This document shows positions 10,494 through 10,892 of a DNA stretch of 32,000 nt, piece by piece. The translations under genes were made by a program, and so were the position numbers. Under the pieces are notes generated by a model. The model was not told where the DNA came from. It saw only the letters and a program-made list of their open reading frames with translations, and ran no database searches. The DNA comes from Candidatus Heimdallarchaeota archaeon B3_Heim (GTDB lineage: Archaea; Asgardarchaeota; Heimdallarchaeia; Hodarchaeales; Hodarchaeaceae): positions 29,084-61,083 of the forward strand of contig NJBF01000026.1 in assembly GCA_003144275.1 (NCBI GenBank), read 5' to 3'. Numbering within the stretch: position 1 is the first letter of the stretch; each line of letters opens with the position of its first letter.

Positions 10494-10892
10494 ATGGAAG
10501 TTGAAATGAATATAATTTTTGAAGAAAAAATTGAAACAAGTAAATTAAATACTTTTATTAAGGAATTAAACAATGAAACCATGAAAATAGATGAAGATCT
10601 AGGAGAAATGAGAACATTCAAAGAAACAAGTCAAGCAATGCCTCTTGATCCCATAATAAAACAATTACTTATCGCTGTTTTAGCACCTATTTTTACCGAC
10701 TACATTCGAGAAAAGAGTCCTGTTGCAAAAAAATATGCCAAAAAAATGTTTAAGAAAGTCTTTGAAAAGATGAAAAAATTAACAAACAAATCAAAGATTG
10801 TCATCAAAAAGGCAGGAGAAGAGATAATGACTCTACTCGAAGGCACTGATGAAGAATTTGATAAAGCAGTGAGAATACTCTCACTAGAATAA
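10494..10892 (+). CDS. small protein with a central hydrophobic helix, EACC1-like in architecture; putative partner of the CHAT protease
   Basis: 132 aa, 47 nt downstream of the CHAT gene and co-directional; hydrophobic segment DPIIKQLLIAVLAPIFTDYI. The family assignment is only inferred. Confidence 0.6.
   Translation: MEVEMNIIFEEKIETSKLNTFIKELNNETMKIDEDLGEMRTFKETSQAMPLDPIIKQLLIAVLAPIFTDYIREKSPVAKKYAKKMFKKVFEKMKKLTNKSKIVIKKAGEEIMTLLEGTDEEFDKAVRILSLE

Follow-up and report, generated by a model that had tools for sequence, protein, structure and literature searches.

A small gene kept behind a CHAT protease gene in Hodarchaeales encodes a likely protease partner with possible kinship to EACC1-type effectors

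This analysis concerns a small gene at positions 10494 to 10892 (plus strand) of a 32,000-nucleotide stretch of contig NJBF01000026.1 from Candidatus Heimdallarchaeota archaeon B3_Heim; the whole stretch is called the window below. The gene encodes a protein of 132 amino acids (aa), P0001, and follows on the gene for a membrane protein, P0002, that ends in a caspase-fold CHAT domain. The pairing of the small gene with CHAT is well supported, and P0001 is most likely a dedicated partner, with the role of substrate the likely one, of the CHAT domain encoded directly upstream. Judged from sequence and profile comparison, the P0001 family is probably homologous to EACC1, a family of small effectors encoded beside caspases. 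We give an even chance to the full mechanism, in which P0001 would be a divergent archaeal EACC1-type pro-effector that is cut by the adjoining CHAT protease.

The small gene is real and under purifying selection. It comprises 132 codons, from the ATG at 10494 to the TAA at 10890-10892, as read from its open reading frame (ORF) and translation, and the opposite strand is closed by many stops. A Shine-Dalgarno-like AAGGTGA (10479..10485, plus strand) lies 8 nucleotides (nt) 5' of the ATG, and its equivalent, GAGGTGA, precedes the small-gene homologues in locus L010 and in genome G019. Directly 3' of the stop is the T-rich run CTTTTTTATTTCT (10900..10912, plus strand), probably an archaeal terminator; oligo-T terminators are used in archaea. 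Exhaustive protein searches returned five homologues of 121 to 130 aa with 22 to 56% amino acid identity to P0001: P0003 (49%), encoded on a 538-bp contig; P0005, P0006, and P0007 (55 to 56%); and P0011 (22%; 121 aa) of genome G019, a hypothetical protein in the NCBI annotation of a Candidatus Hodarchaeota archaeon. The family thus numbers six proteins in four lineages among libraries of 5.8 billion and 1.8 billion proteins, and its pairwise ratios of nonsynonymous to synonymous substitution rates (dN/dS) are 0.10 to 0.22. With P0001 as the single-protein query, 40 related genomes gave only chance-level matches, except for G019 (E, 0.2), and this match was confirmed afterwards by synteny and profile: P0011 matches the family profile (P, 1.3e-4) and is encoded in syntenic position behind CHAT. 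Searched with the family profile, 301 Asgard genomes yielded members in G000 and G019 only. The first-pass annotation had placed a 132-aa gene at 10494-10892, which is exact, and the homologues and dN/dS go beyond what a chance ORF would give. Among the other matches, the 1,107-aa eukaryote-like repeat protein P0004 (E, 1e-5) was rejected as a low-complexity match, and chance was taken to account for weak matches to PADLOC HamA (E, 0.006), NCBIfam CcrC and FlgB, and Pfam RGS.

The protein encoded upstream, P0002, has 1,385 aa (6289-10446, plus strand), and the P0001 gene begins on the same strand 47 nt past its stop. By Pfam and sequence, its sensor part (6289..9804) consists of WD40 repeats, TSP3/Ig-like domains, and one transmembrane (TM) helix (about residues 1147-1172) that is followed by RKK. 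The cytoplasmic CHAT domain forms the C terminus (residues 1173-1385; 9805..10446) and carries the catalytic residues His1249 (10033-10035) and Cys1293 (10165-10167), both checked at the codon level and both invariant. The Pfam CHAT model (PF12770) scores P0002 at 17.9 bits, below its cut-off of 24, and scores three P0002 relatives at 27.7, 24.6, and 30.2 bits, all above it. A profile of the CHAT domain matches PDB entry 8TL0 (SAVED-CHAT) at 4.8e-27 over residues 11-190. By sequence and profile, then, P0002 bears a CHAT domain with an intact His/Cys dyad. The cut-off of the model for EACC1-associated caspases, NF047832, is 140 bits, and the scores obtained with it here are 16.8, 18.3, and 10.9.

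The small gene stays beside CHAT when the rest of the locus does not. In L010 it begins 81 nt after an orthologous WD40-TM-CHAT gene whose product is 47% identical to P0002. In G019, of the same genus, the P0011 gene begins 4 nt after a gene (L174:3131-5881, plus strand; contig C68) for a 916-aa protein that begins with a Ras/Roc GTPase (Pfam Ras, 7e-42; Roc, 4e-31), continues with a helical region without a family match, and ends in a CHAT domain 34% identical to that of P0002. A fourth lineage, L009, encodes LFRRKFLFFL* in the 35 bases that lead up to the small gene, which resembles the P0002 tail LFRWRFLLCFL*. CHAT adjacency is therefore seen in three lineages (window, L010, and G019), and the fourth shows an 11-residue CHAT-like tail. 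The sensor ahead of CHAT is exchanged, from an extracellular WD40 part in the window to a Ras/Roc GTPase in G019, and the genes further 3' of the small gene differ in every context examined, so the unit comprises two genes, CHAT and the small gene. Co-encoding with a caspase-like peptidase, which the first-pass annotation names as a trait of EACC1 proteins, is thus seen here too, across changes of sensor. A constant protease and small gene behind a changing sensor is the pattern described for protease-effector modules by Evans et al. (bioRxiv 10.1101/2025.11.14.688446) and Kaur et al. (PMC7159879).

Three neighboring arrangements were noted beside these loci. An ORF of 173 aa and no known family lies 5' of the G019 GTPase-CHAT gene and overlaps it. 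In the window, 387 nt past the small gene, lies a gene (11280-13418, plus strand) for a 712-aa HerA/FtsK/VirB4-type ATPase (DUF87, 8e-16; CedD-like, 1.6e-11) whose N-terminal 280 residues or so match no known family; it is not conserved by the module in L010 or G019 and is therefore probably not part of it. In genome G037 (L175:1733-2836, minus strand, and 3146-5816, plus strand), a TPR-CHAT gene with a CHAT domain 31% identical to that of P0002 is divergent from an adjoining gene of the metallo-beta-lactamase (MBL) fold (Lactamase_B, 1.5e-8), and no small family member lies downstream of the TPR-CHAT gene. Since some effectors known to be activated by proteases are MBL-fold hydrolases, the G037 pair may represent an effector swap.

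The structure of P0001 was predicted with AlphaFold2 (AF2). On a five-sequence alignment of the family, the model reached a mean predicted local distance difference test score (pLDDT) of 75 and a predicted template modeling score of 0.73, with strand 3-9, helix 15-36, an unstructured stretch 39-55, strand 57-59 and helix 63-73, helix 76-96, strands 100-106 and 109-114, and helix 119-130; strand 3-9 and the hairpin 100-106/109-114 are its only long strands. Modeling from the single sequence gave helices only and a poor score (pLDDT, 60), and the strands therefore depend on the alignment. The alignment-based model reproduces the order of elements proposed in the first-pass annotation (strand, helix, loop, hydrophobic helix, basic amphipathic helix, hairpin, helix), and the loop ETSQAMP singled out there corresponds to residues 44-50, inside the disordered stretch.

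Several parts of the protein bear on its possible action. The N-terminal unit predicted by AF2 (residues 1-38, strand 3-9 and helix 15-36; 10494..10607) is acidic, and we propose that it may be an autoinhibitory pro-part; the net charge of residues 1-45 is -6 in P0001 and -9 to -12 in its homologues, and that of the remainder after residue 45 is +5 to +7 in all members. The flexible loop of residues 39-55, MRTFKETSQAMPLDPII (10608..10658), has a pLDDT below 50 and is the most variable stretch of the family, with conserved flanks LGEMRTF and D-P; it is our proposed cleavage region. Next comes the hydrophobic helix of residues 54-73, IIKQLLIAVLAPIFTDYIRE (10653..10712), supported by Kyte-Doolittle values and hhalign, with small residues at its center (AVLAP, AVVAG, AVVAS, or APAIGAVVG across the family). 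The most hydrophobic 19-mer of the family members starts at residues 48-51 with Kyte-Doolittle values of 1.5 to 2.3 (residue 49 and 1.58 in P0001). The hydrophobic helix is followed by the cationic amphipathic helix of residues 76-96 (10719..10781), predicted by AF2 and with a hydrophobic moment of 0.52, which is an insertion relative to EACC1, and by the hairpin (100-114) and C-terminal helix (119-130; together 10791..10883), the part most like EACC1 by AF2 and hhalign. All of these parts are encoded on the plus strand.

The binding, cleavage, cut site, membrane action, and biological role that we infer for P0001 would fit together as follows. At rest, the acidic unit 1-38 would pack through strand 3-9 on the hairpin 100-114 and so mask the hydrophobic helix 54-73 and the cationic helix 76-96. 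A signal would reach the sensor fused to CHAT, which is an extracellular double WD40 propeller acting through one TM helix in the window and a Ras/Roc GTPase in the congener. The activated CHAT domain, situated directly beneath the membrane, would then cut the loop 39-55, in which Met49 and Asp52-Pro53 are the conserved candidate sites. The freed basic fragment of about 80 residues could insert into the membrane or assemble on it and permeabilize it, and the cell would stop growing or die, as in conflict or abortive-infection responses.

A partner of CHAT need not be lytic. P0001 might regulate, inhibit, or anchor the protease or serve it as an adaptor, whether by being cut or by binding; it could be, for example, a pro-domain-like inhibitor that holds the protease inactive, or a factor that is released toward some other target, much as Craspase frees a fragment of Csx30. 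We consider such a role rather unlikely. Complex prediction of the CHAT domain with the small-protein family scored 0.21, where the mark is 0.32, and neither supports nor opposes binding.

The case for an EACC1-type pro-effector depends on the comparison with EACC1 itself. The EACC1-caspase pair was described as "System 4" by Kaur, Burroughs, Iyer, and Aravind in 2020 (PMC7159879): the EACC1 gene lies 5' of a gene whose product has an N-terminal caspase, and the small EACC1 protein has a conserved central hydrophobic helix with small residues as well as alpha+beta extensions and is known mainly from actinobacteria and from other bacteria (PMC7159879). Its N-terminal fragment makes a sheet with the two C-terminal strands, and a cut near Asp49 yields a toxic, pore-forming C-terminal fragment (bioRxiv 10.1101/2025.11.14.688446). 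The AF2 model of P0001 has elements that could answer to these, with one long strand near the N terminus, two near the C terminus, and the disordered loop and hydrophobic helix between them. As a reference we collected 19 EACC1 loci beside caspase genes by searching actinobacterial genomes, selected by 16S, with the Pfam model PF19953 (gathering score, 23.6 bits), and aligned the proteins. The model scores genuine EACC1 in these genomes at 59 to 111 bits, and 17 of the 19 loci have the canonical layout of a 5' EACC1 gene and an N-terminal caspase with GHG and DCCxSG motifs. The top 19-mers of the 19 proteins start at residues 43-57 with Kyte-Doolittle values of 1.2 to 2.2 (one outlier, 0.7). 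The P0001 family shares the central hydrophobic helix with small residues, and the size, element order, and hydrophobic-helix position of P0001 fall within the range of these proteins.

Profile-profile alignment points the same way, though weakly. By hhalign, the family profile (including the G019 member) aligns with the 19 EACC1 proteins over 106 collinear columns (score, 26.0; P, 6.7e-4; probability, 11%). None of 100 block or column shuffles reached this score, and the reversed sequence scored 12.9. P0003 alone scores 28.9 against the EACC1 profile (P, 1.7e-4; 112 columns; HHsuite probability, 49%), above all of 520 real ORFs of 100 to 170 aa from this genome (maximum, 19.0). The hydrophobic helix of P0001 is aligned to that of EACC1, and the largest share of the signal comes from residues 98-132, opposite EACC1 positions 76-112 (score, 22.8; P, 2.3e-4); a circular-shift null is uninformative here, as the score lies mostly in a single segment. 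The basic helix (76-96) faces a gap in the alignments and contributes no score alone. When a plain hidden Markov model (HMM) of the 19 EACC1 proteins was run against the ORFs of ten loci, the family members came out on top, but only at E of 0.8 to 1.8. A feature search of the ESM Atlas has EACC1 clusters as the first neighbors with a family name for both P0001 (0.87) and P0003 (0.88, 0.86, and 0.86), scores that lie under the tool's 0.9 mark and serve as leads, and the top structural neighbor of P0003 is an EACC1 cluster (template modeling score, 0.54/0.55).

The likeness to EACC1 could also have arisen by convergence, with P0001 a new, unrelated protease-activated membrane effector or a relative of another family, such as SLATT. 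The absence of a PF19953 match would fit this, as would the restriction of the EACC1 score to the C-terminal part and the basic helix of about 25 residues without an EACC1 counterpart. On the other side, hhalign gives a collinear, full-length alignment with elements opposite their EACC1 counterparts; most of its score comes from a hairpin and helix that are not hydrophobic; and EACC1 is the one family named in the Atlas searches. For SLATT, P0003 alone gives sub-threshold matches (SLATT_fungal, PF18142: E, 0.003; 18.1 bits against a cut-off of 26.5; NF033635: 11.7 against 35), and membership was rejected, P0001 being without a match and having only one hydrophobic helix instead of two TM helices. 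We judge convergence to be unlikely. No Pepco, Trypco1, or Trypco2 family appears among the Pfam-A matches at E of 10 or less, Pfam-A includes Trypco models, and the neighbor is a CHAT protein and not a trypsin-like one; in the same scan P0001 and P0003 each match four unrelated weak families only.

Several results weigh against taking P0001 for an EACC1-type effector of its neighboring protease. P0001 and P0003 go unmatched by PF19953 at E of 10 or less, the genome read in all six frames has no match to it at E of 1 or less, and no match in the 301 Asgard genomes exceeds its cut-off. P0001, P0005, P0006, and P0011 fall singly within the real-ORF null (the fraction of ORFs scoring as high is 0.05 to 0.22), the HHsuite probability is low for both the family profile and P0003, and the N-terminal 46 residues are at null, the hhalign signal coming from residues 47-132 (P, 2.7e-4). 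The plain HMM ranks P0001 only 734th among 5,431 ORFs of the genome, and an atlas search with the AF2 model returned no EACC1, with all template modeling scores below 0.5. In the protein itself, the hydrophobic helix is borderline as a TM helix (Kyte-Doolittle, 1.58) and holds Lys56, and the candidate site Asp52 is Ser in the G019 member. In gene context, the small gene lies 3' of the protease here and 5' in the canonical system; the protease is a C-terminal CHAT domain and not an N-terminal "DCCxSG" caspase (NF047832); and next to the 80 nearest metagenomic CHAT homologues (25 to 37% identity) no family member or EACC1 is detectable. The resemblance to EACC1 proposed in the first-pass annotation thus finds partial support, in architecture, profile-profile comparison, and the Atlas, and none in PF19953, in P0001 taken alone, in gene order, or in protease clade. 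No solved structure was similar to the AF2 model beyond noise: Foldseek against the PDB gave a best E of 0.2, the wide VIA-align search a best Z of 5.9, under the tool's stated noise, and no confident match to a housekeeping fold, which that annotation had named as a result that would speak against it, emerged from the AF2-model structure searches.

An ORF in another genome resembles part of a canonical EACC1. On the 2.1-kb contig C148 of G016, a 93-aa ORF (L171:373-654, plus strand), whose sequence includes ILALGSAGAITAAVEIFKAWLGRD, matches PF19953 positions 26-72 at 20.6 bits, just below the cut-off. It corresponds to about the first two thirds of a canonical EACC1, stops before the hairpin, and has no adjoining caspase gene. 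It is either a truncated gene or part of a contaminant contig, the metagenome-assembled genome having 8% contamination.

The small gene also occurs away from any protease. In L011, L012, and L013, from three metagenomes, no protease is encoded within 5 to 7 kb of it, which is a further point against a fixed tie to CHAT. The gene lies there in a 519-bp block (L011:450-968) that differs from its counterpart behind CHAT in L010 (3725-4243) by two mismatches (99.6% identity). The block extends from 59 nt before the ATG to 67 nt past the stop, includes the gene's own Shine-Dalgarno sequence and upstream region, and has sharp breakpoints on both sides in two unrelated contexts; it behaves like a small movable gene cassette. 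Upstream of the small gene in all three loci is a 153-aa ORF, P0008 (L011:18-479, plus strand), without a Pfam match and with no copy found in the window's genome. Its last ten codons (RKMKNKKII*) fall inside the shared block, so its 3' end was made by rearrangement and marks the junction. It contains a helix-turn-helix-like stretch, and it may resemble the N terminus of an insertion sequence transposase. The surroundings in L011 form an accessory-gene island (3321-3662; 3738-4118, minus strand; 5852-7096, minus strand) that holds an Mrr_cat restriction-endonuclease-like protein, a 126-aa WD40 fragment, and a 414-aa leucine-rich-repeat protein.

These loci raise the alternative that the small gene is independent of the protease, a lineage-specific accessory gene on a movable cassette that stands behind CHAT by chance. 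The self-contained, nearly identical block in protease-free loci is in its favor, as is the tiny size of the family. We hold it to be quite improbable, because three or four lineages, at about 50 to 80% protein divergence, keep the gene behind a homologous CHAT domain though the rest is replaced, a linkage that makes chance association unlikely. The near identity of the protease-free copy and a CHAT-linked one dates the move as recent, and the upstream ORF marks a rearrangement junction; L011 to L013 represent a recent transfer of the gene with its upstream region and not a long-standing protease-free lineage. Homologues independent of a protease, which the first-pass annotation had regarded as contrary to its proposal, are accordingly found in one lineage, on a recently moved cassette, and the gene follows CHAT or, in L009, a CHAT-like tail in the others.

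If P0001 is indeed a pro-effector cut by CHAT, the logic of protease-activated effectors would extend to Asgard archaea, here to Hodarchaeota, and the module would there be joined to two signaling inputs of eukaryote-like kind, namely a Ras/Roc GTPase and a receptor-like WD40 ectodomain. Since the Pfam EACC1 model would miss such divergent members, the range of the EACC1 family is probably underestimated. A wider reading, which we offer tentatively and think doubtful as a whole, is that an extracellular signal in Asgard archaea is sensed by a glycosylated double WD40 propeller and passed through the TM helix to CHAT, which cuts an EACC1-like pro-toxin that forms a pore. Such a death pathway, from receptor to caspase to pore, would resemble death-receptor or pyroptotic signaling in form and would operate in the closest prokaryotic relatives of eukaryotes, with a sister version switched by a Ras/Roc GTPase. 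The two genes are easily cloned and would offer a concrete test of caspase-type regulated cell death in the archaeal lineage nearest to eukaryotes. To our knowledge, protease-activated death effectors (EACC1, Pepco, and gasdermins) have so far been described in bacteria, and a brief literature search found no description of a CHAT and EACC1-like pair in Asgard archaea.

Among known systems, the EACC1-caspase pair is the closest in design. In both, a protein of about 110 to 130 aa is encoded beside a caspase-fold protease fused to variable sensors, and in both the small protein has an N-terminal strand and helix, a loop near residues 45-50, a central hydrophobic helix, and a hairpin followed by a helix. 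Apart from gene order and protease type, the P0001 system departs from this design in having an archaeal host (Hodarchaeota), a Roc GTPase or an extracellular WD40 receptor as sensor, and, between its hydrophobic helix and hairpin, about 25 added residues that form a cationic amphipathic helix. The P0002 CHAT domain, with its invariant His/Cys dyad, is of the same protease clade as SAVED-CHAT (8TL0), to which it is closest. In SAVED-CHAT and in the TPR-CHAT protein Csx29 of Craspase, with its target Csx30, CHAT proteases cut a specific protein encoded nearby, and the logic proposed here, with presumed cleavage of a dedicated neighbor by a sensor-controlled CHAT, would be alike. Unlike those systems, the present one has no CRISPR or cyclic-nucleotide (SAVED) sensor and instead a membrane receptor-like ectodomain or a small GTPase, and its presumed substrate, of 132 aa, has no similarity to PCaspase or Csx30. 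Bacterial gasdermins are latent membrane-permeabilizing proteins from which a caspase-like protease encoded alongside removes an inhibitory part. The release of a latent membrane protein by the protease encoded next door would be common to both, whereas gasdermins are about twice as long, have another fold, and lose a short C-terminal peptide, the putative inhibitory part of P0001 being N-terminal; the Pfam scan, Foldseek against the PDB, and VIA-align gave no gasdermin sequence or fold match for P0001. The overall design is thus a known one, and its novelty here lies in the host being an archaeon, in the sensors (a WD40 receptor and a Roc GTPase), in the inverted order of the two genes, and in the helix that is inserted.
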